A stretch of 34,588 nt of DNA. It comes from a virus. Taxonomy: Duplodnaviria; Heunggongvirae; Uroviricota; Caudoviricetes. Each line of letters begins with the position of its first letter. Position 1 is the stretch's first letter. The stretch is from positions 1 to 34,588 of IMG/VR virus record IMGVR_UViG_2778261256_000005; one strand, 5' to 3'. This document shows positions 1 through 34,588 of this stretch, one piece after another. The notes under the pieces are model-generated. The model was not told the origin of the DNA. It worked only from the letters and a program-made list of their open reading frames with translations, and ran no database searches. The position numbers were made by a program, and so were the translations under genes.

Positions 1-45
1 GGAGAACCCCGCTGACCCGGCGGCGTGTTTGCCGTTGTTCCGTGT

Positions 46-110
46 CAGTGGTGGCGCATTATAGGGAGTTATTCCGGCCTGACAAGCGAAAAATATAAAA
101 ACTTTATCGT
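46..110 (-). promoter_or_regulatory. rRNA operon P1 promoter (rrn-type; -35 TTGTCA, -10 TATAAT, GC-rich discriminator, A/T-rich UP-like region)
   Basis: Reverse complement of 46-100 reads ttttatatttttcgcTTGTCAggccggaataactcccTATAATgcgccaccactg, matching the remembered rrnB P1 core; -35 at 80-85 and -10 at 58-63 on minus strand; region downstream (1-45) matches the P1-P2 spacer of rrn operons. Confidence 0.7.
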
Positions 111-164
111 TCGCTCACTTTTCAGGCAAAACATCTTAAATATAGTCTTTTCCGTCTAACTTAT

Positions 165-197
165 AGACAAAAACGAGCCCCGAAGGGCTCGTTTTAT
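165..197 (-). terminator. Rho-independent terminator downstream of clpB (bidirectional hairpin flanked by A and T runs)
   Basis: Stem cgagccc (174-180) / gggctcg (185-191), 4-nt loop, A-run before and T-run after. Confidence 0.7.
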
Positions 198-200
198 CAT

Positions 201-2774
201 TTACTGGACGGCGACAATCCGGTCTTCATTAACTTCCAGGCGAATCACTTTACCCGGAACCAATTCACCAGACAGTATTTGCTGTGCCAGCGGGTTTTCG
301 ATCTGCTGCTGAATTGCACGTTTCAGAGGACGTGCACCATAGACCGGATCGTAACCGTTCTCGCTCAGCAGTTTCAGCGCCTCGTCAGAAATGTGGATTT
401 CATAACCACGTTCTTCCAGACGTTTGTACAGACGTTTCAACTGAATCTGCGCAATCGAGGCAATGTGCTGTTCACCCAGCGGATGGAAGACCACCACTTC
501 ATCGATACGGTTAATGAATTCCGGACGGAAGTTATGGCTTACCACACCGAGCACCAGCTCTTTCATGTGCGCATAATCCAGTTCACCGAAGCGTTCCTGA
601 ATCAGATCGGAACCGAGGTTAGAGGTCATAATGACGACCGTATTACGGAAGTCGACCGTTCTCCCTTGCCCGTCAGTCAGACGCCCATCATCCAGTACCT
701 GCAACAGAATGTTGAAGACATCCGGATGCGCTTTTTCCACTTCATCCAGCAGGATGACGGAATACGGACGACGACGCACCGCTTCGGTCAGGTAGCCACC
801 TTCTTCATAACCGACATATCCCGGAGGCGCACCAACCAAACGAGACACCGAGTGTTTCTCCATAAACTCGGACATATCGATACGGACCATCGCCTCGTCG
901 CTATCAAACATAAAGTTCGCCAGCGCCTTACAAAGCTCTGTTTTCCCCACACCAGTTGGGCCGAGGAACAGGAATGAACCAATCGGGCGATTTGGATCCG
1001 CCAGCCCCGCACGGCTACGACGAATAGCGTTAGATACCGCATCAACCGCTTCGTTCTGACCAATTACGCGATGGTGCAGTTCTTGCTCCATACGCAGCAG
1101 TTTTTCGCGCTCGCTTTCCATCATGCGAGAAACCGGAATCCCCGTCCAACGCGCCAGCACTTCAGCAATTTCGGCGTCGGTCACTTTATTACGCAACAGA
1201 CGCATAGTTTTGCCTTCGAGCTGCGTTGCGGCTTCCAGTTGCTTTTCCAGTTCCGGGATTTTGCCGTATTGCAGTTCAGACATCCGCGCCAGGTCCCCCA
1301 CACGGCGAGCCTGTTCAATAGCGATTTTCGCCTGTTCCAGTTCCGCTTTAATGGTCTGCGTACCAGAAAGCGATGCCTTCTCTGCTTTCCACTCTTCTTC
1401 TAACTCGGAGTACTGACGTTCTTTGTCGCTCAGTTCTTCGTTGAGCATATCCAGACGTTTTTTACTGGCTTCATCAGACTCTTTCATTAACGCCTGTTGT
1501 TCCAGTTTGAGCTGGATGATACGACGATCGAGTCGGTCGAGTTCTTCTGGTTTTGAGTCAATCTGCATACGAATGCTGGATGCTGCTTCATCGATCAGGT
1601 CGATGGCTTTATCCGGCAGCTGACGGTCAGCAATGTAGCGATGAGACAACGTCGCCGCTGCAACAATTGCCGGGTCAGTAATTTGCACATGGTGGTGCAA
1701 TTCGTAACGTTCTTTCAGGCCACGCAGAATCGCAATGGTATCTTCAACAGAAGGCTCGGCAACAAACACTTTCTGGAAACGACGTTCCAGCGCAGCATCT
1801 TTTTCAATGTACTGGCGATATTCGTCAAGCGTCGTGGCACCTACGCAGTGCAATTCACCACGCGCCAGCGCCGGTTTCAGCATGTTTCCGGCGTCCATTG
1901 CGCCATCGGCTTTACCCGCGCCGACCATGGTATGTAATTCGTCGATAAATAGGATGACGTTGCCTTCCTGTTTGGCAAGATCGTTAAGCACGCCTTTTAA
2001 ACGTTCTTCAAACTCACCGCGATATTTCGCCCCAGCCACCAGCGCGCCCATATCCAGCGCCAGTACCCGGCGGCCTTTCAACCCTTCCGGCACTTCGCCG
2101 TTGATAATACGCTGCGCCAGACCTTCAACGATGGCAGTTTTACCGACGCCGGGTTCACCAATCAGTACCGGGTTATTTTTAGTACGACGTTGCAGCACCT
2201 GAATGGTACGGCGAATTTCTTCATCACGACCAATCACCGGATCGAGTTTGCCCTGTTCGGCTCGTTCGGTAAGGTCGATGGTATATTTTTTCAAAGCCTG
2301 ACGTTGGTCTTCAGCACCTTGATCGTTCACGCTTTCACCTCCACGCATTTGTTCAATCGCTTGAGTAATGTTGGCGGTGGTCGCCCCTGCTGCTTTCAGG
2401 ATGTCGGCCAGCGTGCCGCGAGACTCAAGTGCCGCCAGAACGAACAGTTCTGACGAGATAAAGTTATCACCACGTTTTTGCGCCAGCTTGTCGCAAAGAT
2501 TAAGAACGCGCACCAGATCCTGTGATGGCTGGACATCACCACCAGTACCTTCAACCTGCGGTAAACGATTTAATGCCTGATTGATATCTGTGCGCAACTG
2601 GCCAGCATTTATGCCAGTGGATGTTAATAAAGGACTAACCGAACCCCCTTCCTGATTCAGCAGGGCGCTCATTAAATGAAGTGGTTCGATAAATTGGTTG
2701 TCGTGCCCGAGTGCAAGTGATTGGGCATCGGCAAGAGCAAGCTGGAATTTATTAGTAAGACGATCCAGACGCAT
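201..2774 (-). CDS. clpB: ClpB disaggregase (Hsp100 AAA+ chaperone), 857 aa
   Basis: ORF translation begins [10 protein letters not shown] at the second in-frame ATG (2774) preceded by GGGAGGAG; two Walker A motifs ([16 protein letters not shown]); track ORF 201..2786 has a 4-codon 5-prime extension. Confidence 0.96.
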
Positions 2775-2812
2775 AACTCCTCCCATAACGGATCAAAGTT
2801 GCTACTGGAGAT

Positions 2813-2841
2813 TAAATGAGGTCATCCCTCAATTATTCAAG
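2813..2841 (-). promoter_or_regulatory. sigma-32 heat-shock promoter of clpB
   Basis: Minus strand reads CTTGAAtaattgagggatgaCCTCATTTA upstream of clpB, matching sigma-32 consensus CTTGAA-N13/14-CCCCATnTA. Confidence 0.6.
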
Positions 2842-2903
2842 GTTATTGACCAGATTAATGTGAAAAGAAAATCACGCGTACCGGATCGTCTTGATTCTTT
2901 AGG

Positions 2904-3635
2904 TTATATCAGCCAAATGAAACTTGCCATACGACCGGTGGTCTTGTCGCGACGATAAGAGAAGAAAGTCTCATTTTCCGTATATGTACAACGGTCGCCG
3001 CCGAAAATTTGCTCAACACCCACGTTCGCCAGACGCTGCCGGGCAAGCTGATAAATATCCGCCAGATACTTATCACCATGCTGAATGAAAGCTGCACTTG
3101 CTTTAGCGTCTACTGCCATAAACGCCTCGCGAACCTCCCCCCCCACTTCGAACGCGCGTGGACCAATTGCCGGCCCTAACCAGGCGAGAATATTTTCCGG
3201 ATTATCAGCAAAACAGGAAACCGTCTCTTCCAGCACGCCTGCGCACAGTCCACGCCAGCCAGCATGAGCGGCGGCGACTTCCGTTCCCGCTCGATTGCAA
3301 AACAGCACAGGGAGGCAGTCGGCAGTCATCACTGCGCAAACCGTGCCGGGCGTATTGCTATAAGAGGCATCCGCCCGTTTTGAGGCATAAGGTTCGCCAG
3401 TGAGCTTAAGCACATCTTTGCCGTGTACCTGCTCAAGCCAGACCGGTTTAGAAGGCAAATTGCCCGCAGCAAAAAGTCGCTTGCGATTCTCCTCAACGTG
3501 ATCCGGGTTATCGCCACAATGGGCACCGAGGTTGAGTGAGTCATACGGGGGCAAGCTCACGCCGCCGATACGAGTGGAGCTACAGGCCGCAACACCTTTT
3601 GGCTGCGGCCACTGCGGGACAATCAGCTTACTCAT
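2904..3635 (-). CDS. yfiH: YfiH/PgeF family protein (DUF152, laccase-like purine nucleoside phosphorylase / peptidoglycan editing factor)
   Basis: 243 aa ORF between clpB and rluD as in E. coli; start overlaps rluD stop by 4 nt. Confidence 0.85.
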   Translation of the reverse strand: MSKLIVPQWPQPKGVAACSSTRIGGVSLPPYDSLNLGAHCGDNPDHVEENRKRLFAAGNLPSKPVWLEQVHGKDVLKLTGEPYASKRADASYSNTPGTVCAVMTADCLPVLFCNRAGTEVAAAHAGWRGLCAGVLEETVSCFADNPENILAWLGPAIGPRAFEVGGEVREAFMAVDAKASAAFIQHGDKYLADIYQLARQRLANVGVEQIFGGDRCTYTENETFFSYRRDKTTGRMASFIWLI

Positions 3636-4612
3636 AACCAGTCCACTTCATCCTTATGTTCTTCGAAATCGGCGCGCATCACCTCAATCAGCTCCACCAT
3701 ATCTTGTGGAATAGGCGCATGCCATTCCATTTCGATGCCGGAGATCGGGTGATAAAGACGCAGCATGGTTGCATGTAGCGCCTGGCGGTCAAACTTACGC
3801 AGCGTGGAGATAAATGCTTCCGAAGCACCTTTTGGCGGACGCGGACGGCCACCATAAACCGGATCGCCCACCAGCGGATGAGTGATATGGGCCATATGCA
3901 CGCGGATCTGGTGCGTACGTCCAGTTTCCAGACGCAACCGCAGACGCGTGTGCACACGGAAGTGTTCCATGATGCGATAGTGAGTCACCGCTGGTTTGCC
4001 CATCGGATGCACCGCCATATGGGTACGTTTGGTCGGGTGGCGACTGATTGGCTCGTCCACCGTGCCACCTGCGGTCATATGACCAATCGCCACCGCTTCA
4101 TACTCACGAGTAATTTCACGCCGTTGCAAAGATTCGACTAAACGCGTCTGAGCCGGAACGGTTTTTGCCACAACCATCAGGCCAGTGGTGTCTTTATCCA
4201 GACGATGGACGATGCCCGCACGCGGTACATCGGCAATGGGTGGATAGTAATGAAGCAACGCATTCAGTACCGTGCCATCCGGGTTACCCGCGCCAGGATG
4301 TACCACCAGGTCGCGCGGTTTATTAATGATAATAATGTCTTCATCTTCATAGACGATATCCAGCGGGATATCCTGCGGTTCAAAACGCGCTTCTTCTTCA
4401 ATCTCAGCGTTGATGGCAACCTGCTCGCCACCCAATACTTTTTCTTTCGGCTTATCACAAACTTTGCCGTTAACCAGCACTCGCTGGTCGAGGATCCATT
4501 CTTTTATTCGCGAACGTGAATAATCCGGGAACATTTCGGCCAAAGCCTGATCTAAGCGTTGACCGAGTTGGTTTTCGGACACCGTTGCAGTGAGCTGTAC
4601 TCGTTGTGCCAT
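3632..4612 (-). CDS. rluD: 23S rRNA pseudouridine synthase RluD
   Basis: 326 aa, N-terminal S4-like region and pseudouridine synthase core (HRLDKDTTG motif). Confidence 0.93.
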   Translation of the reverse strand: MAQRVQLTATVSENQLGQRLDQALAEMFPDYSRSRIKEWILDQRVLVNGKVCDKPKEKVLGGEQVAINAEIEEEARFEPQDIPLDIVYEDEDIIIINKPRDLVVHPGAGNPDGTVLNALLHYYPPIADVPRAGIVHRLDKDTTGLMVVAKTVPAQTRLVESLQRREITREYEAVAIGHMTAGGTVDEPISRHPTKRTHMAVHPMGKPAVTHYRIMEHFRVHTRLRLRLETGRTHQIRVHMAHITHPLVGDPVYGGRPRPPKGASEAFISTLRKFDRQALHATMLRLYHPISGIEMEWHAPIPQDMVELIEVMRADFEEHKDEVDWL

Positions 4613-4746
4613 ATATACTGCTTCTTCGTTTATCGTTGGGGTTTTACGGCTTTGCCGTTTAATATAGTGTGCTATTGTAGCTGGTCTTAACCGGGAGCAG
4701 GAACAGAGAATCTCCCGTATTACATTTTGAGGAAAGTCAAAACGTC

Positions 4747-5484
4747 ATGACGCGCATGAAATATCTGGTGGCAGCCGCCACACTAAGCCTGTTTTTGGCG
4801 GGTTGCTCGGGGTCAAAGGAAGAAGTACCTGATAATCCGCCAAATGAAATTTACGCGACTGCACAACAAAAGCTGCAGGACGGTAACTGGAGACAGGCAA
4901 TAACGCAACTGGAAGCGTTAGATAATCGCTATCCGTTTGGTCCGTATTCGCAGCAGGTGCAGCTGGATCTCATCTACGCCTACTATAAAAACGCCGATTT
5001 GCCGTTAGCACAGGCTGCCATCGATCGTTTTATTCGCCTTAACCCGACCCATCCGAATATCGATTATGTCATGTACATGCGTGGCCTGACCAATATGGCG
5101 CTGGATGACAGTGCGCTGCAAGGGTTCTTTGGCGTCGATCGTAGCGATCGCGATCCTCAACATGCACGAGCTGCGTTTAGTGACTTTTCCAAACTGGTGC
5201 GCGGCTATCCGAACAGTCAGTACACCACCGATGCCACCAAACGTCTGGTATTCCTGAAAGATCGTCTGGCGAAATATGAATACTCCGTGGCCGAGTACTA
5301 TACAGAACGTGGCGCATGGGTTGCCGTCGTTAACCGCGTAGAAGGCATGTTGCGCGACTACCCGGATACCCAGGCTACGCGTGATGCGCTGCCGCTGATG
5401 GAAAATGCATACCGTCAGATGCAGATGAATGCGCAAGCTGAAAAAGTAGCGAAAATCATCGCCGCAAACAGCAGCAATACATAA
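4747..5484 (+). CDS. bamD: Outer membrane protein assembly factor BamD (lipoprotein, TPR)
   Basis: 245 aa, signal peptide with lipobox LAGC, matches remembered BamD/YfiO sequence. Confidence 0.93.
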
Positions 5485-5503
5485 CAGAAACCTGAAACAC
5501 AAA

Positions 5504-5531
5504 ACGGCAGCCCTTGAGCTGCCGTTTTTTT
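5504..5531 (+). terminator. Rho-independent terminator after bamD
   Basis: Stem acggcagc (5504-5511) / gctgccgt (5518-5525) followed by T7 run. Confidence 0.7.
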
Positions 5532-5700
5532 ATTCTGTCAGTTGTGAAACTGAAGCGATTTAGTCGCTATCGATCTCATCAAATATGGCTCGCTTTGAGA
5601 TATTCCTCAAGTAAAAAAACATCTCTTCCTGCGATTTCTCACAAAAAAGATTCGTTGACAAAAAGTGACAAAATTATGAGATTTTCATCACACATTTTGA

Positions 5701-6096
<396 letters not shown>

Positions 6097-6118
6097 TCCT
6101 TTATATTGAGTGTATCGC

Positions 6119-6146
6119 CAACGCGCCTTCGGGCGCGTTTTATTTA
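6119..6146 (+). terminator. Rho-independent terminator after raiA
   Basis: Stem acgcgcc (6121-6127) / ggcgcgt (6132-6138), loop ttcg, followed by tttattt. Confidence 0.7.
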
Positions 6147-6239
6147 CCTGTAGCACATTGAAATAAAAGGATTTATCTCAACAAACGTCCACATAGTGAC
6201 CACATCGACAATACAAACCCCGTTTCGACGGGGTTTCTT

Positions 6240-7427
6240 ATGCGTGTCAATAAGTCCACAGAGCATTCCCGACATCCGCAAAAAATGTTAACATCCATAA
6301 AAACACCAAGCGTAATTATTATAATGAAATATATTTTTGAATACGGACTTTATCTCAGCATACTTATAGCGACAATATATGTCACTTCTAAGTTATTGGG
6401 TATTACACCTGCAAAACATAAATACGCCTCGCTTGATGGCTTACGTGGAATTTGTGCAGCAATGGTTGCTGTATTCCATCTTTACTGGAGAGCCGGAGGA
6501 GAATCAGATATATACTGGTCTCTTGAGTACATTACACTCAGCAATGTAAAACGCGCCATATATCTAACAGGAGAGTTATCTGTTGGGGTCTTTTTTATGC
6601 TGTCTGCTTTTTTATTTTTCAAAAAGGCACTAGCGGACTCCTTCGATGTAAAAAGCTTTGCAATTTCACGATTCATGCGAATTTACCCACCTGTAGTTGT
6701 TCTTTTATTTATAATATATATTGCAACATTTATCATGAATCCGGATAACCATACTCCAGTATCGCAATGGTTTATATCTTCATTACCATTTATATTCAAT
6801 CCGCCTGGCGCTAACATCAATGGTGTATCGCTCCAGATTGCCACATCTGGTGTGTTCTGGACGTTAGTCTGGGAATTACGCCTATACCTTGCAATTCCAT
6901 TTTTATATCTGATAATGAAAAACATCAAATATAAAGAAGCATTTGTTATTTTTTTAATGGGATGTGTTTTATTATTCAAGTATTTTATAAACAATGAACA
7001 ACACCTGAGTTATATAATGTATTTCCTTGCAGGATTTCTTGTCGCTACAATCAAGAGCAACAAGCGCCCATCAGATATAATCTGCGCTTTATTATTATTC
7101 GCAGCCATATATTTTACTCGACATGCTTACAACACTACAACTCCGCTTTATATGTTTATTGTTTTCTACACAATAAAGTGCGGATGTGATTACTTTGGCT
7201 TACTTACATCCCTGCCTGTAACTATGCTGGGAACCTGCAGTTTCTCCCTTTATTTAGTTCATGGGATAACTCAAACAGTATCTAAACATTATTTATATAG
7301 TGCAGGAAACTATGTTTGGCAGATTTGTGCAATTATTGCGGCAGGTATCATTGCGCCGGTTATGTACAAATATGTCGAAAGTCGCAGCATCATACATAAG
7401 CGTCCTCAACTTCAGATTGCAAAGTAG
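6240..7427 (+). CDS. Acyltransferase family 3 integral membrane protein (Oac/OafA-like, putative surface polysaccharide O-acetyltransferase)
   Basis: Strongly AT-rich ORF; multi-pass hydrophobic protein with LDGLRGICAAMVAVFHL, FFMLSAFL, RFMRIYPP and SFSLYLVH motifs typical of acyltransferase-3 family; start uncertain (ATG 6240, 6285 or 6324, none with a strong SD). Confidence 0.7.
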   Translation: MRVNKSTEHSRHPQKMLTSIKTPSVIIIMKYIFEYGLYLSILIATIYVTSKLLGITPAKHKYASLDGLRGICAAMVAVFHLYWRAGGESDIYWSLEYITLSNVKRAIYLTGELSVGVFFMLSAFLFFKKALADSFDVKSFAISRFMRIYPPVVVLLFIIYIATFIMNPDNHTPVSQWFISSLPFIFNPPGANINGVSLQIATSGVFWTLVWELRLYLAIPFLYLIMKNIKYKEAFVIFLMGCVLLFKYFINNEQHLSYIMYFLAGFLVATIKSNKRPSDIICALLLFAAIYFTRHAYNTTTPLYMFIVFYTIKCGCDYFGLLTSLPVTMLGTCSFSLYLVHGITQTVSKHYLYSAGNYVWQICAIIAAGIIAPVMYKYVESRSIIHKRPQLQIAK

Positions 7428-7434
7428 AACATTT

Positions 7435-7454
7435 GCGCCCCTGAACAGGGGCGC
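7435..7454. other. GC-rich stem-loop just after acyltransferase gene (terminator-like, no U-tract)
   Basis: gcgcccct (7435-7442) gaac aggggcgc (7447-7454), perfect 8-bp stem. Confidence 0.35.
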
Positions 7455-7519
7455 TATCCCACCACGCTGTTAAAATTTTGTTTCGTCTTACTTAGCATTT
7501 TTAAGTTGCCCATCGGAAA

Positions 7520-7790
7520 AACGTCACAACCATCACGCCCCACAAAAAAAACCATTAACCATCTGATTATCATGAATAAATGTTGTGATGGTAAAACCAT
7601 CACAAAACGTAACGTAAACCGTCACACCCTATAAATTCAGCGAGTTATAAAACAGAGTTGTGATGTTTTAAGGCCGTCACACTGTGATGCTCTTGTGATG
7701 CTCTTGTGATGGTTTTCAATATATGAATTTACTTATACATATCATATAGATAAATGATATTTTTTAAATCTGTGATGTTTGTGACGGTTT
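7520..7790. repeat. Cluster of iteron-like TGTGATG / CATCACA motifs incl. 9-bp inverted repeat and 11-bp tandem duplication, next to an AT-rich block
   Basis: GTGATG at 7585, 7660, 7684, 7695, 7706, 7772; CATCAC at 7531, 7598; inverted repeat ttgtgatgg-N5-ccatcacaa (7583-7605); tandem tgatgctcttg x2 (7686-7707); AT-rich stretch 7712-7770; no ORF >=60 aa in 7430-8440. Confidence 0.5.
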
Positions 7791-8420
7791 TCCGATGCTC
7801 CCCCTAAATTTTTGAAAAAATTAGAAGTGGTCAGAAATCACCCTGATTTGTTGGTGGTTTTGTATATATCTCTGTTAGTGATTTGAGCATTGGTGCAGTA
7901 CGTTAATGTAGGTATGGCTATAGTTCAGGCTGTGCAAAGTATTTCAGTTCCGCATCTCACGGTCATTCCGCGCCAGAACACATCAAATAAGGCCTTGTCA
8001 CTTTCTCCCGCTTACGTGATCCCGCTGCGGCCGTTACGTTAAAAGTCACGTAATCACTGTTAAACCCGCATGAAGTCCGGCACCGTCATTTTTCACCCAC
8101 GGCCGGTAATTGCACAAAAACTGTAATCCTTGAAATCTGTTTCACATATTTCAGTCGGTGAACTACCGCCAAAGCCCCAGCGCTGGCGCAGTCTGGCGAT
8201 GTGTTTTGTACCCCCAGAAAAACTGAAATCATTCTCAACACGAAAACCGCAGGCGGGTGCGGTGTAGCGCCGTTTTCGTCACTTCCGCCGTTATTTCGTC
8301 GTGGCAGGCTGCATCAGCGCCTTGCTGTGCTTTTAAAGCTAATTAAGTTGGGATTGGAGCGGGTGTAGATACTGTCGGCGCTCAGAATGCGTCTGGTGAG
8401 GTCTGGTGGGTGCGATAAAG

Positions 8421-8444
8421 CCCGCATGACGCGGGCTGGTTGAG
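8421..8444 (-). terminator. Putative terminator of the phage late (tail) operon
   Basis: Perfect 7-bp stem agcccgc/gcgggct (8421-8438) directly after stop of the 567-aa gene, followed on minus strand by ttat. Confidence 0.4.
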
Positions 8445-8447
8445 AAA

Positions 8448-10151
8448 TCAGGCGATAATGTTCTGGTACTTGCTCCGGGTCTGCCCGGCTTTCGTCGCCG
8501 TCTGTGTAAACTCGGCGGCATTGGTTGGAGTCCCAACGGTGGGGTGTGAATGGTTCGCGCATTGCTGCGCCAGTTCTGCCAGTAAATCAATGGTGTCCAG
8601 CATCATGGTCAGGGCGTTGATACTCTCGCTGCCAATATGGACTGTTGCCCCCATGACCTGCTGACCGCCAGCGGCCACTGATTTACGCAGTGCGGCAATC
8701 TTCTCTGTCAGGCTTTCGCCAACCTCCACGGCTACAGCACCGCCCACTTTAGTGGACTGCTGTCCTGCTATGTCCGTTTCTTCGTTTCCTTCAATACTGG
8801 CCAGCCTGTTACCTTTCACCGCCTGGCTATAATCACCGGCGCTTACCTGCTGGATGGCTCCGGCCAGCAGTGTGGTGGTTCCCAGTACCGTGGTTTTGTC
8901 CGTGGCTTTCACCGTGGTTTCACGGCTGACCAGTTCGCGCTGCTCCGTATCGGCTTTTACGGTTCGCGCCATCGATGTTTCACTGATGGTTTGATCGGTC
9001 TGCCTTACCCAGTCTCCAGCCTGAGTCACCCTCTGGGATACTTCTTCCCTCTGCTGCTGCAATTGCTCACCGGGTTTAACGTCCGGCAGGCTGGTACCAT
9101 CCGGCAGCGTCTGCCTGATAAAGGGTTTATCCGGTCTGCCTCCCGTGAATGCAACCTCAACCAGCGTCCCTTCTGGCGGAAACTGAAACATACCTGAATC
9201 ATTCCCGGCCATTGGCACCGGCAGCGGCACCGCTGAGTAAACAGGCGTCTGATTGTCCGGGTTTCCGTCTGCGTCAAGCAGCTGAACGTCCACGGCATAA
9301 CGTGGCCGGAATGGATCGGCAAAATTACCACTTTTCACGGGTTCAGTATGTGCCACCACTCTGGCCATCTTTGGCAGATGAAGCCCGGAAGCCAGTTCCG
9401 GATAATGGCTCTCAATCTGTCGTTGTGTCGGTGTTTTCTGAAGGGGGCTGCCTGTGACGCGGTTCCGGGGTGTCCAGGTGATAGTCATCGTGTCATTTGT
9501 AAGATGGACTTTGGTGACCCGTTCACCGTTAAGCTCAACGCCGGGTCGTATCGTCTGGATCACCGGTAACGTTATGGTATTCCCGCCAGCAGCCCCCTGG
9601 CTGAACTCTGCCGGCACTTCGACCGGACGACCGGTAAACAGTGACTTTTCAGCACCGCCGACGTAAAGCGAACCATCAGGCAACTGGTACCAGATGTAAT
9701 CCTGGATACTGAATGCCCTGCCCAGGTTGTTCAGCAACTGATAGCCGGTACCGTTATGGGTGAAATGGGGGATCGGAGTATCGCTGTAAGACACATCGGG
9801 TACACTGACACCGATCCCGCTGTTTTCCGTCAGCCAGCCGGCTACATCCCTTAATGTCGGGTGCTGAAATGAACATGGCCACATCCTTTCAAAAACACCG
9901 GCCAGCTCACGAATGAACAGACGCTGATAACCGTTTTCAGCTGGTTGTGAACGTTCAACATAACCGGTAAACCAGCGCAAAAGCAGGTCGGTATATCCCA
10001 CATCCAGCCGCACCAGTTTCCCGGTATAATCAGTGGTTGTCTCTGCGGTAATAAATCCCCGACCGCAACTGTTAAGCTCCAGTACCAGGCTGGCATCAGC
10101 CAGATGCACTTCATCCGTTGAAAGGTAAAGACGTTTAACTGGTTTCATCAT
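8448..10151 (-). CDS. Phage tail/baseplate protein, putative hub-spike (gpD/gpV- or VgrG-like), 567 aa
   Basis: Last gene of translationally coupled tail operon (start overlaps upstream stop, TAATG); C-terminal half is T/V/A/G-rich like spike beta-structure; family assignment is by position and composition only. Confidence 0.4.
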   Translation of the reverse strand: MMKPVKRLYLSTDEVHLADASLVLELNSCGRGFITAETTTDYTGKLVRLDVGYTDLLLRWFTGYVERSQPAENGYQRLFIRELAGVFERMWPCSFQHPTLRDVAGWLTENSGIGVSVPDVSYSDTPIPHFTHNGTGYQLLNNLGRAFSIQDYIWYQLPDGSLYVGGAEKSLFTGRPVEVPAEFSQGAAGGNTITLPVIQTIRPGVELNGERVTKVHLTNDTMTITWTPRNRVTGSPLQKTPTQRQIESHYPELASGLHLPKMARVVAHTEPVKSGNFADPFRPRYAVDVQLLDADGNPDNQTPVYSAVPLPVPMAGNDSGMFQFPPEGTLVEVAFTGGRPDKPFIRQTLPDGTSLPDVKPGEQLQQQREEVSQRVTQAGDWVRQTDQTISETSMARTVKADTEQRELVSRETTVKATDKTTVLGTTTLLAGAIQQVSAGDYSQAVKGNRLASIEGNEETDIAGQQSTKVGGAVAVEVGESLTEKIAALRKSVAAGGQQVMGATVHIGSESINALTMMLDTIDLLAELAQQCANHSHPTVGTPTNAAEFTQTATKAGQTRSKYQNIIA

Positions 10152-10696
10152 TAACCCAAAGCATCATTGACGGGCTTCAGCACCTTGCGTTCAAACCACG
10201 TCAGTTTTTCTTCATCTTCTCCGGCCGTCTGACCACCGGATTGTTCCGCGCTGCCGGTTGTCTGTTTTTTCGCAGTGGTTTTGCCGGTTGATCTGGCTTC
10301 CCGCTTTTCCTGTACGCTAATATGTTCCGCCAGCGTGAAAGTCACCATCCAGGACATTTTCCCGTCCTGCTGTGGTGCATCCAGCATTCCGCTGAATGTG
10401 GCCTCACGAAAATTCACCGCTCTGGCAACCTCATGCGCAACACGGTATGTCTGTCGTTTCCCGCTACTATCGGTAGCGCTGGCCAGTTCAAAGATACGCT
10501 TCAGAATCTCCGGATTTTTGAAAGGAATTTCGCCACTGATACGCAGCTCCTTTCCTTTTGCCCCCTGCTCAGATTTTGACGTTGCGCTGGTCTGCCCTGA
10601 CTGGTCTTTATCCTGAAACTGCTGTGAGACTGTCACGCGCATATTCTTCAGCTGTATGGCCTCGCCGTTAAGCGCCAGTGTCGGGATCGAAGTCAT
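10151..10696 (-). CDS. Phage tail protein, function unknown (181 aa)
   Basis: Within coupled tail operon; low-complexity K/Q/T/G-rich C-terminus; no recognisable motif. Confidence 0.4.
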   Translation of the reverse strand: MTSIPTLALNGEAIQLKNMRVTVSQQFQDKDQSGQTSATSKSEQGAKGKELRISGEIPFKNPEILKRIFELASATDSSGKRQTYRVAHEVARAVNFREATFSGMLDAPQQDGKMSWMVTFTLAEHISVQEKREARSTGKTTAKKQTTGSAEQSGGQTAGEDEEKLTWFERKVLKPVNDALG

Positions 10697-11393
10697 GAAT
10701 CATTCCCTTTATTCCATCAAGATTATCGCCAACCAGCATCATGGCAGCGGTGTAAACGGCAGACTGCTGCGGAATGTCCTTCACCAGTTCCAGTAACATG
10801 GTGCCGGTGTCTCCGCTGGCAGTAAAAACCCACGCTCTGGCACTCTTCCCCTGTAAATCGTTCAGGCCGTTGGCCACATCACTGATAAGTTGGTCACGCA
10901 GCTGCGTGAACTCGCCCAGCTGTTTTTTCAGCCCTTCGATATCAAACCCGGCACCCGCCGCCTTTTGTGCCTGGCTGATTGCCGCAGCAGATAAAGCTGC
11001 CCTGCTGGTTGGTACAGACAGCGGAATGGACGCAGGTAACGCAGCGGCGGTTTTCGCAGGGATCTGCATCTTTTCAATAGCCAGCGCTGCGGCGGATTGC
11101 GCCAGCCGTTTGACCTGCGTGAATGCCGGGGCGGGGAAAATCCCGACCAGGTTATTCAGGCTGGCCATAAAGTTTTCCTGTGTCTGTCCGGTGACCATCA
11201 TAATCACCACGTCCACATTCCCCCCTGTTCCGGCCAGGCGTTCAGCAAGATAGCGAACAGCATTAACCGGGCTGAGATATGCCCCGTTTGCTGTCTGCTG
11301 TCCCAGCCCATAAATCCACGGATGCGCAGGGACGATCGAACAGTTCGACGCAGCAACAGAATCCGTGAAGGCCAGACGTGCTTCACGCCACAT
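10668..11393 (-). CDS. Phage tail protein, function unknown (241 aa from ATG 11393)
   Basis: ATG at 11393 preceded by GGAGGTG at 7-nt spacing; track ORF 10668..11429 has unsupported 5-prime extension. Confidence 0.45.
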   Translation of the reverse strand: MWREARLAFTDSVAASNCSIVPAHPWIYGLGQQTANGAYLSPVNAVRYLAERLAGTGGNVDVVIMMVTGQTQENFMASLNNLVGIFPAPAFTQVKRLAQSAAALAIEKMQIPAKTAAALPASIPLSVPTSRAALSAAAISQAQKAAGAGFDIEGLKKQLGEFTQLRDQLISDVANGLNDLQGKSARAWVFTASGDTGTMLLELVKDIPQQSAVYTAAMMLVGDNLDGIKGMIHDFDPDTGA

Positions 11394-11970
11394 TTCCAGG
11401 CACCTCCGGCCACACAATTTCCGGCGCATCTTCCGGTTGAATACGGTTCATTAAAACGCGGTATTTTTTCCATGCGGTAAGCAGCAGTGCTTCTTCTTCG
11501 GTCGCCATGTCTAAATCTACGGCATCCTGCAATGTGGCAATGGCATCACTGGCCTGTTTAAGTAGTCTTTTCTTTTCTGCATCTGCCTCGCTGACTAATG
11601 CAGTTCGCATGGCCTCCGCATCATCCACCCACGCCTTTCCATTCCATTTTTGCCAGGCATTAGCCGGGGCTGACGTGGTTGTCCCTTCCGGGTAAGCACC
11701 AGGCTCGGTGATTACCAGTTCATTACCGTTTTCCGTGTCAAACACTACCTCACCACGATGATCCTCACGGGAAATCCATCTTTGCTTCTCTGAATCAAAA
11801 ATCGCCACAAATCCCGCTTTTATTGCCTGTGGCTTTATCGTGGTGCAGTTAGCTGGCAGTCCGGTATGTGCAGGAATAAAAGCGTCACCCGAACCAATAA
11901 ATTCATTCGTATCGGAACGCAGGTTATAAACAGTAACTGTTTGATCGGTTTCACTCATTTTAAAAGTCAT
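11383..11970 (-). CDS. Tail fibre assembly protein (Tfa/gpG-like chaperone)
   Basis: 195 aa immediately downstream of tail fibre gene (TAATG overlap); C-terminal region resembles conserved Tfa C-terminus. Confidence 0.7.
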   Translation of the reverse strand: MTFKMSETDQTVTVYNLRSDTNEFIGSGDAFIPAHTGLPANCTTIKPQAIKAGFVAIFDSEKQRWISREDHRGEVVFDTENGNELVITEPGAYPEGTTTSAPANAWQKWNGKAWVDDAEAMRTALVSEADAEKKRLLKQASDAIATLQDAVDLDMATEEEALLLTAWKKYRVLMNRIQPEDAPEIVWPEVPGNVA

Positions 11971-33358: not shown

Positions 33359-33640
33359 CTAACGAGCACTTTTATCTTTCGTGAATAAACGGTTCTTCCA
33401 GTCATGCCATTCAGGCGGGGCAATTTGAGCCAAATGAATGGCATAAGCATCCCATTCCCCCCGATGGATATAGATTTCTCCACCTTTTTTTGATGGATTT
33501 AGAGGGTCTTTCATGCGGATTACCGGCAGTTTTCCAGCCGTGGCCATTTTGCGAATTGCAGCAGGCGTTTTGCCTATATATTCGGCAAAAAGCTCAGGGG
33601 TCACCAACTCTGAAAGCGCCTTTTCTGCTGGTTCCTTCAT
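33359..33640 (-). CDS. Cox-like excisionase/early-operon regulator
   Basis: 93 aa first gene of leftward early operon divergent from C repressor; HTH-like region ending GKLPVIRM; size matches P2 Cox (91 aa). Confidence 0.55.
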   Translation of the reverse strand: MKEPAEKALSELVTPELFAEYIGKTPAAIRKMATAGKLPVIRMKDPLNPSKKGGEIYIHRGEWDAYAIHLAQIAPPEWHDWKNRLFTKDKSAR

Positions 33641-33659: not shown

Positions 33660-33748
33660 TTTGGGTTCCTAGGGCGCTTTAAGTCGTTCTAGGGTTCTTT
33701 TGTCAAGGTTCTTTTGTAAGAACCAATAATAGTTGCGATACAAGAACC
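33660..33748. promoter_or_regulatory. Immunity switch region with repeated GGTTCTT half-sites (putative C/Cox operators and divergent promoters)
   Basis: GGTTC(T/C)T in direct orientation at 33664, 33693, 33707 and inverted (aagaacc) at 33719 and 33742; TTGTCA -35-like at 33700. Confidence 0.45.
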
Positions 33749-34048
33749 ATGCCAAGAAATTATGCGGAGAAACTCCGGCAGATCCGGAAAGCTGAAGGGT
33801 TAACTCAAAAAGATTTTTCAGAGCTTACTGGGGTAGCTCTTGGAACAATAAAAAAGTACGAAACTGGCCATCAGCCAGCTCGTGCAGAAGTCTTAGAAAG
33901 TGTTATAGAGGTACATATGTTTGAAAAATATACACTCTGGTTAATGACAGATAAGACGGCACCAATTGCGGGGCAGGTGTCCCCGTCTCTCTCCCCTGAT
34001 GGGCAAGACAACATAACATCATCCCGTTCCACCCGGAAAATTGGCTAA
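33749..34048 (+). CDS. Immunity repressor, P2 C-like
   Basis: 99 aa (same length as P2 C); HTH plus KYTLWLMTDKTAPIAGQVSP resembling remembered P2 C KYTLWFMTNQIAPESGQIAP. Confidence 0.75.
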   Translation: MPRNYAEKLRQIRKAEGLTQKDFSELTGVALGTIKKYETGHQPARAEVLESVIEVHMFEKYTLWLMTDKTAPIAGQVSPSLSPDGQDNITSSRSTRKIG

Positions 34049-34114
34049 ACATCTGGTTTTTCTATGCGTTAGCGCAAAATTTACATAATGATTCATACAT
34101 CGGAGGGCTTCGCT

Positions 34115-34511
34115 ATGTCGATTAAGAAGCTTGATGATGGTCGTTTTGAAGTGGACGTTAGACCGCGCGGAACCTCAGGAAGAAGGATTCGACGCAAATT
34201 TGACAGAAAGGCGGAAGCACAGGCATACGAGCGGTATGTACTGACAAACTTTCACGATAAAGAATGGCAGGATAAACCCGCAGACAGGAGGCTTGTATCC
34301 GAGTTAATTTCTTTATGGTGGAGCTACCATGGAAAGAATCACAACTATGGTGACTCATATAAAAAGCGTTTGGAAAAAATCAACCGAGAAATGGCGGAAC
34401 CCAGAGTGTACGAGCTTACCCGCAACTTTCTGATGAAATATCGTGCAGAACGACTTCATAGTGGAGTATCTGCTGGCACGGTAAACAGGGATTTCTGTTC
34501 CATGTCCAGCA
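34115..34511 (+). pseudogene. P2-like tyrosine integrase, N-terminal ~132 codons only, interrupted by IS10
   Basis: MSIKKLDDGRFEVDVRPRGTSGRRIRRKFDRK matches remembered P2 Int N-terminus (MAIKKLDDGRYEVDIRP...RIRRKFDKK); GGAGGG SD; reading frame runs into IS10 end at 34512 and stops at 34549; catalytic domain absent from window. Confidence 0.8.
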
Positions 34512-34588
34512 CTGATGAATCCCCTAATGATTTTGGTAAAAATCATTAAGTTAAGGTGGATACACATCTTGTCATATGATCAAATGGT
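34512..34588 (+). mobile_element. IS10 (Tn10-type) outside end, first 77 bp (element continues beyond window)
   Basis: ctgatgaatcccctaatgattttggtaaaaatcattaagttaaggtggatacacatcttgtcatatgatcaaatggt matches the remembered IS10 outside terminus containing the pIN/pOUT region. Confidence 0.8.

Follow-up and report, generated by a model that had tools for sequence, protein, structure and literature searches.

In all likelihood, a single copy of IS10 (IS10-Right/ISVsa5) has recently transposed into the integrase gene, int, of an otherwise intact ~29-kb P2/ESSI-2-like prophage in one Escherichia coli isolate. The stretch of DNA that we analyzed (hereafter, the window) is the complete draft contig NNVY01000048.1 of assembly GCA_002485945.1, 34,588 bp in length. 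Its outside end abuts the 132nd codon of int, within the core-binding domain, and the int message now encodes 132 Int residues and 12 residues derived from the IS, with no catalytic domain. About 1.25 kb beyond the end of the window, we would expect the opposite end of IS10, the target TGTCCAGCA once more, int codons 133–330, attR and pheL.

An IS10 outside end at a breakpoint in int

The breakpoint can be read directly from the sequence and lies at 34511/34512, where GATTTCTGTTCCATGTCCAGCA is immediately followed by CTGATGAATCCCCTAATGATTTTGGTAAAAATCATTAAG. In a megablast comparison of positions 33700–34588 with 5,426 complete E. coli genomes, 18 genomes matched the window at 99.6–100%, with all matches ending at 34511. 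In the best match, NZ_AP023286.1 (strain 2018-18.25PC), the allele is intact and continues from GTCCAGCA into TGTTCAGTTTGCTG, forming an int gene of 993 bp; read further, the uninterrupted junction joins GTCCAGCA to TGTTCAGTTTG.

The last 77 nucleotides of the window (34512–34588, plus strand) start with the terminal sequence of the IS10 (IS4 family) outside end, CTGATGAATCCCC, and are identical at 77/77 positions to the first 77 nt of 1329-bp copies of IS10-Right/ISVsa5 type from two other loci (L003 and L004), an identity which, judged by the sequence, cannot be due to chance. The matching copies are annotated as "IS4-like element ISVsa5 family transposase." A reference copy read in its entirety spans 1329 bp, starts with CTGATGAATCCCC, ends with GGGGATCTCTCAG, carries the transposase coding sequence from nt 108 and, in L003, is flanked by the 9-bp duplication TATCAAGCA, which together constitute the anatomy of IS10. 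Compared with the full element, the window has 77 of 1329 nt and ends before both the transposase gene and the inside end. Thus, the proposal of the initial annotation that an IS10 outside end begins at 34512 is borne out by the complete identity of the 77 nt and by the exact breakpoint relative to the 18 intact genomes.

The resemblance to IS10 (IS10-Right of Tn10; ISVsa5 family of IS4 in the NCBI nomenclature) extends from the terminal 77 nt to the place and orientation of the antisense RNA-OUT and perhaps to the target, which fits the consensus in part. The 3′ half of RNA-OUT is found at 34557–34588 on the minus strand (Rfam RF00240, 35.2 bits, E = 2.3e-5, model positions 39–70); the match falls below the Rfam gathering score only because the contig end removes the 5′ half of the RNA. 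RNA-OUT points outward from IS10, toward int and the repressor gene C. Its location on the minus strand fixes the orientation of the element, with the outside end at the junction and pOUT directed leftward, facing the 5′ fragment of int. The expected 9-bp target, TGTCCAGCA, corresponds to the nine bases abutting the IS end (34503–34511, plus strand), of which the window contains the single, left copy. Of the 6 positions that the IS10 consensus NGCTNAGCN specifies, it fits 4, and its AGC half-site is perfect; degenerate sites are also used by IS10 (PMC4574204). Unlike in known IS10 insertions, the site is int codon 132/133, which was found in no other record searched.

Some matches (H26–H28) run 17–19 bp into int, and a misplacement of the IS boundary was considered; on alignment, they proved to be unrelated insertion sites with a partly similar target or flank, and the boundary at 34512 stands. 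Two such unrelated IS10 sites (L003 2501–2517 and L004 2501–2519) share 13–14 of ~17 IS-flanking bases with window positions 34495–34511 (TTCCATGTCCAGCA-like). This similarity exceeds the expectation from the 9-bp consensus and could point to a target preference of IS10 that extends into the surrounding sequence.

Matches to the IS10 end are present in about one-third of complete E. coli genomes, often in multiple copies, and a short-read assembler could not cross such a repeat, so the contig, and the window with it, stop 77 bp into the IS. The opposite end of the window (positions 1–100) is the region upstream of an rrn operon; its first ~100 bases are multi-copy in E. coli (median of four places per genome) and, in the reference, are separated by ~240 bp from a 16S rRNA gene. 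The short-read assembly therefore broke at a repeat on either side, in the rrn region at the left end and in IS10 at the right end, and the 77-bp IS stub would correspond to a typical assembler k-mer overlap (k = 77).

The truncated integrase and its probable consequences for excision

The 5′ fragment of int (34115–34511, plus strand) comprises codons 1–132 and the first base of codon 133, and, as far as 34511, does not differ at any position from int of NZ_AP023286.1 (100% identity). A GGAGG Shine-Dalgarno motif is located 7 nt 5′ of the ATG at 34115, where RefSeq also starts int. An in-frame ATG lies upstream (34088–34114, encoding MIHTSEGFA-), at which some GenBank partial proteins (P0021 and P0029) begin and from which the fusion would be 153 aa long; no such 153-aa protein was found among the protein records, and the position of the Shine-Dalgarno motif favors the start at 34115 over that at 34088. 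The resulting fusion open reading frame (34115–34549, plus strand) begins with MSIKKLDDGRFEVDVRP, its native part ends with NRDFCSMSS after 132 codons, and 12 IS10-encoded residues (TDESPNDFGKNH) precede the TAA at 34547–34549, as the initial annotation had stated. The codon that opens the added part is a hybrid, with A contributed by int and CT by IS10. The 144-aa fusion product is on record as WP_244578707.1, from NNVY01000048.1 only.

The intact allele encodes 330 aa, with the Pfam domains Int_N at residues 57–156 and Phage_integrase at 164–307. It matches the structure of P2 Int (5C6K) with E = 4e-97 and is 57.5% identical to P2 Int over 322 aa, the homology covering the core-binding and catalytic domains; the window fragment is its first 132 residues, so the P2 Int-like nature of the N-terminus is confirmed. 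As in the P2 integrase (5C6K and 5DOR), the intact allele has the arm-binding, core-binding and catalytic domains in this order; in integrases of the P2 type, arm sites are bound by the N-terminal domain and the core by the middle one, whereas catalysis resides in the C-terminal domain (PMC3448106). What remains in the window fragment is the arm-binding N-domain with roughly three-quarters of the core-binding domain, Int_N covering residues 57–132 (profile positions 1–76 of 100). All catalytic motifs of the intact protein are located past codon 132 (GARWGE at 192, HVLRH at 268, LGH at 292 and TYAHF at 302), and the window frame does not contain the R-K-H-R-H-Y set of the catalytic domain, which agrees with the earlier statement that this domain is missing after the first 132 codons. 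On its sequence, the window holds a fragment of the int gene and not a functional member of the P2-type heterobivalent tyrosine integrases, and the fusion product could at most bind arm DNA.

Excision of P2 requires both Int and Cox (PMC3936717). The annotation of the near-identical prophage of strain 2018-18.25PC, which is collinear with that of the window, lists no second integrase. Given P2 biology and a prophage with no other annotated integrase, Int-dependent excision would be lost, and it is a sound inference that the element can neither excise nor re-integrate in a site-specific manner. Without Int, Int/Cox/IHF-dependent excision and re-integration would not take place, and the prophage would be lost by deletion only, unless an Int of the same arm and core specificity acted in trans; a related P2-like prophage elsewhere in the genome could supply a compatible Int. 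With this qualification, which it also made, the suggestion of the initial annotation that the prophage is locked in the chromosome appears sound. P2-type phages are not known to be inducible by the SOS response and depend on spontaneous induction. Since the repressor is of the P2 C type (2XCJ/2L49), mitomycin C is poorly suited for an excision assay.

The prophage and its attachment site

The prophage occupies positions 6143–34588 and is collinear with the annotated prophage of NZ_AP023286.1. The preceding segment of the window (1–6100) is chromosomal, with clpB, yfiH, rluD, bamD and raiA. Just upstream of clpB, the sRNA RyfD (RF02768, 125 bits; 2755–2893, minus strand) was the sole Rfam match in the window above the gathering score and represents ordinary chromosomal content. 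The prophage is inserted between raiA and pheL of E. coli, and in 2018-18.25PC int is followed by pheL and then pheA. The attL core (AACGCGCCTTCGGGCGCGTTTT; 6120–6142, plus strand) lies in the raiA terminator at the left end of the prophage, and a copy of its 23 bp with one mismatch is located between int and pheL in the intact reference (L005 ~35191–35213), the variants of the core being AACGC[G/A]CCTTCGGGCGCGTTTT. Next to attL are two P2-type arm repeats, GTCCACA and GACCACA (6187–6204, plus strand), 11 bp apart (6187 and 6198), and a second pair of arm repeats overlaps the 3′ end of int in the intact reference; the repeats in the window fit the P2-type arm consensus tgTGGaCa (PMC3448106).

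The order of modules in the window is acyltransferase cargo, tail and baseplate, lysis, head, terminase, portal, ogr, primase (of the Toprim type), exonuclease, cox, C and the truncated int. The P2-family capsid, GPO scaffold, terminase, portal, Ogr, C and Cox, recognized by Pfam and in the RefSeq annotation, assign the element to the P2-like (Peduoviridae-type) prophages. Upstream of int and on the same strand is the gene for a 99-aa C-type immunity repressor (33749–34048, plus strand; PDB 2L49/2XCJ "C protein," E = 1.8e-19 over residues 3–99; Pfam HTH_3), whereas cox (33359–33640, minus strand; Pfam Phage_Cox, E = 7.7e-25; PDB 4LHF, E = 5.4e-9), encoding the excision directionality factor and Pc repressor, is the first gene of the divergent early operon. 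This layout is that of the P2 switch, in which the C-int operon likewise faces cox; the att core, too, is flanked by arm repeats of the P2 type. The window prophage differs from P2 in its attachment site, the raiA terminator adjoining pheL, and in having int cut after codon 132.

The nearest sequenced phage, Escherichia phage ESSI2_ev239, and Cronobacter phage ESSI-2 have the same structural and replication modules, and ESSI2_ev239 shows 92% nucleotide identity over 95% of window positions 6140–31000. By contrast, no Int more than 60% identical to the intact allele was found among phage records, indicating that the integration module differs from those of sequenced phages. The tail module is HP1/ESSI-2-like and the head and switch modules are P2-like. 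Among the genes on the minus strand at 8448–11429, annotated as "hypothetical" and located by the tail fibers, are structural ones, for a gp5/Phage_base_V-like spike (567 aa) and an HP1 ORF34 baseplate protein (181 aa). Defense-system cargo was considered and rejected, given that the regions tested yielded no PADLOC matches and that these "hypothetical" genes encode baseplate and spike proteins.

At the attL end, a low-GC (31–38%) gene encodes a membrane acyltransferase of the Acyl_transf_3 family (6240–7427, plus strand; 395 aa from the ATG at 6240, or 367 aa from the RefSeq start at 6324), likely a moron that modifies a surface polysaccharide. The adjoining ~1 kb up to the gene for the 567-aa spike (7428–8447) contains no open reading frame of at least 90 aa and no annotation in the reference, and its GC content rises from ~35% to ~55%.

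Recurrent inactivation of int and alternative explanations

Apart from the IS, comparison of the window with the corresponding region of 2018-18.25PC, which has an intact int, shows 8 substitutions in 34,511 bp and not a single indel. Among ~15 billion proteins, the fusion protein was encoded on 1 contig and the intact Int on 567 contigs, and the int::IS10 junction was absent from the 5,426 complete E. coli genomes. Exact scans of genome, viral and metagenome contig collections for the left junction, and of genome and metagenome contig collections for the predicted right junction, returned 0 matches; the source assembly is not among these collections, so the zero counts mean only that the allele was not seen elsewhere. 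A literature search for the assembly accession GCA_002485945.1 found nothing. By these sequence comparisons, the insertion is recent and, in the data searched, unique to one isolate.

The same int gene has been inactivated in other ways. In E. coli E89 (NZ_CP121157.1; L007 5416–8369), IS100 splits int at codon 95/96, with the C-terminal part of int, attR and pheL directly after the IS. The E89 allele involves the same prophage family and chromosomal site and likewise splits the gene in its 5′ third, but IS100 is an element of the IS21 family, is ~2 kb long and is inserted at another position, and thus represents an independent event. In BY63 (L009 2238–4263), BY68 and I3, an IS1-linked deletion of ~17 kb extends from the tape-measure gene to int codon 77, and in PSJ-12 and 23CRST024 int is frameshifted by a 1-bp insertion. 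Draft assemblies encode further fusion or split Int proteins (...GTVN+DLTQQ, ...FCSM+WLC, LLLGKI+RLHSG... and one split at residue 124); taken together, the E89 and BY63 loci and the proteins P0011, P0012, P0021, P0022 and P0025 show independent inactivation by IS100, the IS1-linked deletion, the 1-bp insertion and at least three other insertions. Overall, int is inactive in 6 of the 22 complete genomes that carry it, many of which are probably clonal. Such repeated inactivation of int is usual prophage decay. The listed E. coli breakpoints all fall within int codons ~77–133, which may be a hotspot or an artefact of clustering and listing, and we give this pattern little weight.

The resolved E89 allele serves as a model of what probably lies beyond the contig end, where the remainder of int and attR are likely to be contiguous past the IS. 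The predicted right junction is the IS10 inside end GGGGATCTCTCAG joined to TGTCCAGCATGTTCAG, or, written at greater length, GGGGAAATTATGAGGGGATCTCTCAG followed by TGTCCAGCATGTTCAGTTTGCTGATAGATATGG, with pheL ~0.8 kb downstream. The frame after the IS is predicted to read TGA and then GDLSVSSMFSLL, and a C-terminal product, if made, would be without the arm-binding domain and would retain only a minor part of the core-binding domain.

The window covers the left side of the junction only, and its 77 bp of IS cannot separate a lone IS10 from the IS10-Right end of a composite Tn10; the outside end found at the junction is also the terminus of Tn10. The IS10 end could accordingly belong to a larger event, either insertion of a composite Tn10 carrying tet(B) or an IS10-mediated deletion or inversion, by which the 3′ part of int and attR would have been displaced or lost. 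Tn10-derived tet(B) segments with IS10 are common, and the IS1-linked deletion in BY63, BY68 and I3 demonstrates that IS-associated deletions occur at this locus. However, the 77 bp of the window are those of the abundant solitary variant of IS10, which we take to be IS10-Right, whereas the tet(B)-linked variant (L008, a Shigella plasmid, beside tetR(B)/tet(B)), which differs from the abundant one at 16 positions, has four of these differences within the first 77 nt (IS positions 24, 25, 27 and 47). Moreover, IS10 ends are frequent and often multi-copy in E. coli genomes, collinearity with intact prophages holds for the whole sequence up to the junction, and the resolved IS100 case is a simple insertion, so that we regard a larger event as unlikely. 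It is highly improbable that the junction is an assembly artefact or stems from a subpopulation, for instance one in which IS10 hopped during laboratory growth, the isolate being essentially int+. IS10 does transpose readily in culture (PMC4574204) and the junction is present in one assembly only; yet a contig from a de Bruijn graph that includes the full 77 bp of the IS needs reads that span the junction, a mixed culture would be expected to end the contig at a branch point at 34511, and two samples are reported for NNVY01000048.1. That the contig continues for the full 77 bp into IS10 suggests that crossing reads carried the junction, with no competing branch at 34511.

A simple, recent IS10 insertion, our preferred reading, could also have been adaptive, if loss of int were selected because it fixes the prophage, with its acyltransferase cargo or immunity, in the chromosome. 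The independent knock-outs described above, the proportion of inactive alleles among complete genomes and the low-GC Acyl_transf_3 gene at the attL end would fit this idea, but every one of the alleles is rare and int::IS10 is a singleton, many of the 22 genomes are probably clonal, and the way in which sequence clusters were formed and listed biases the set of truncated proteins. Recurrent IS insertions and frameshifts are also the outcome of neutral prophage decay, and, since excision of P2-type prophages is rare to begin with, losing int would bring little benefit. A grounded prophage under selection would be marked by a knock-out that is old or fixed and by purifying selection on its cargo; instead, we found a singleton 8 SNPs away from an int+ strain. 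We consider adaptive fixation to be most improbable, and the domestication-like state stabilizing the cargo genes, as put forward in the initial annotation, finds no indication of selection in an insertion that is both recent (8 SNPs over 34,511 bp) and a singleton (1 contig versus 567). A broader version of the idea, in which the 5′ third of int (codons ~77–133) is a preferred or selected target of several IS families (IS10, IS100, IS1 and at least 2 others), grounding of the raiA-pheL prophage is favored, for example by cargo or immunity, and the arm-binding fragment together with antisense transcription from pOUT into C could have a regulatory role, strikes us as quite doubtful. Int::IS10 would rather look like a neutral step of decay than a selected state.

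We conclude that this is an ordinary IS10 insertion in an ordinary P2-like prophage, a kind of decay that is already known and of little import beyond annotation. For annotation, WP_244578707.1, a 144-aa "phage integrase," is an artefact of the fusion of truncated int to IS10 and not a small integrase, and the prophage of the GCA_002485945.1 isolate should be scored as excision-defective although its other genes look intact. Being within 8 SNPs of an intact copy, the allele provides a dated example of the first step in prophage decay and, together with the IS100, IS1-deletion and frameshift alleles, material for estimating the rate at which the integrase is lost from P2-like prophages.
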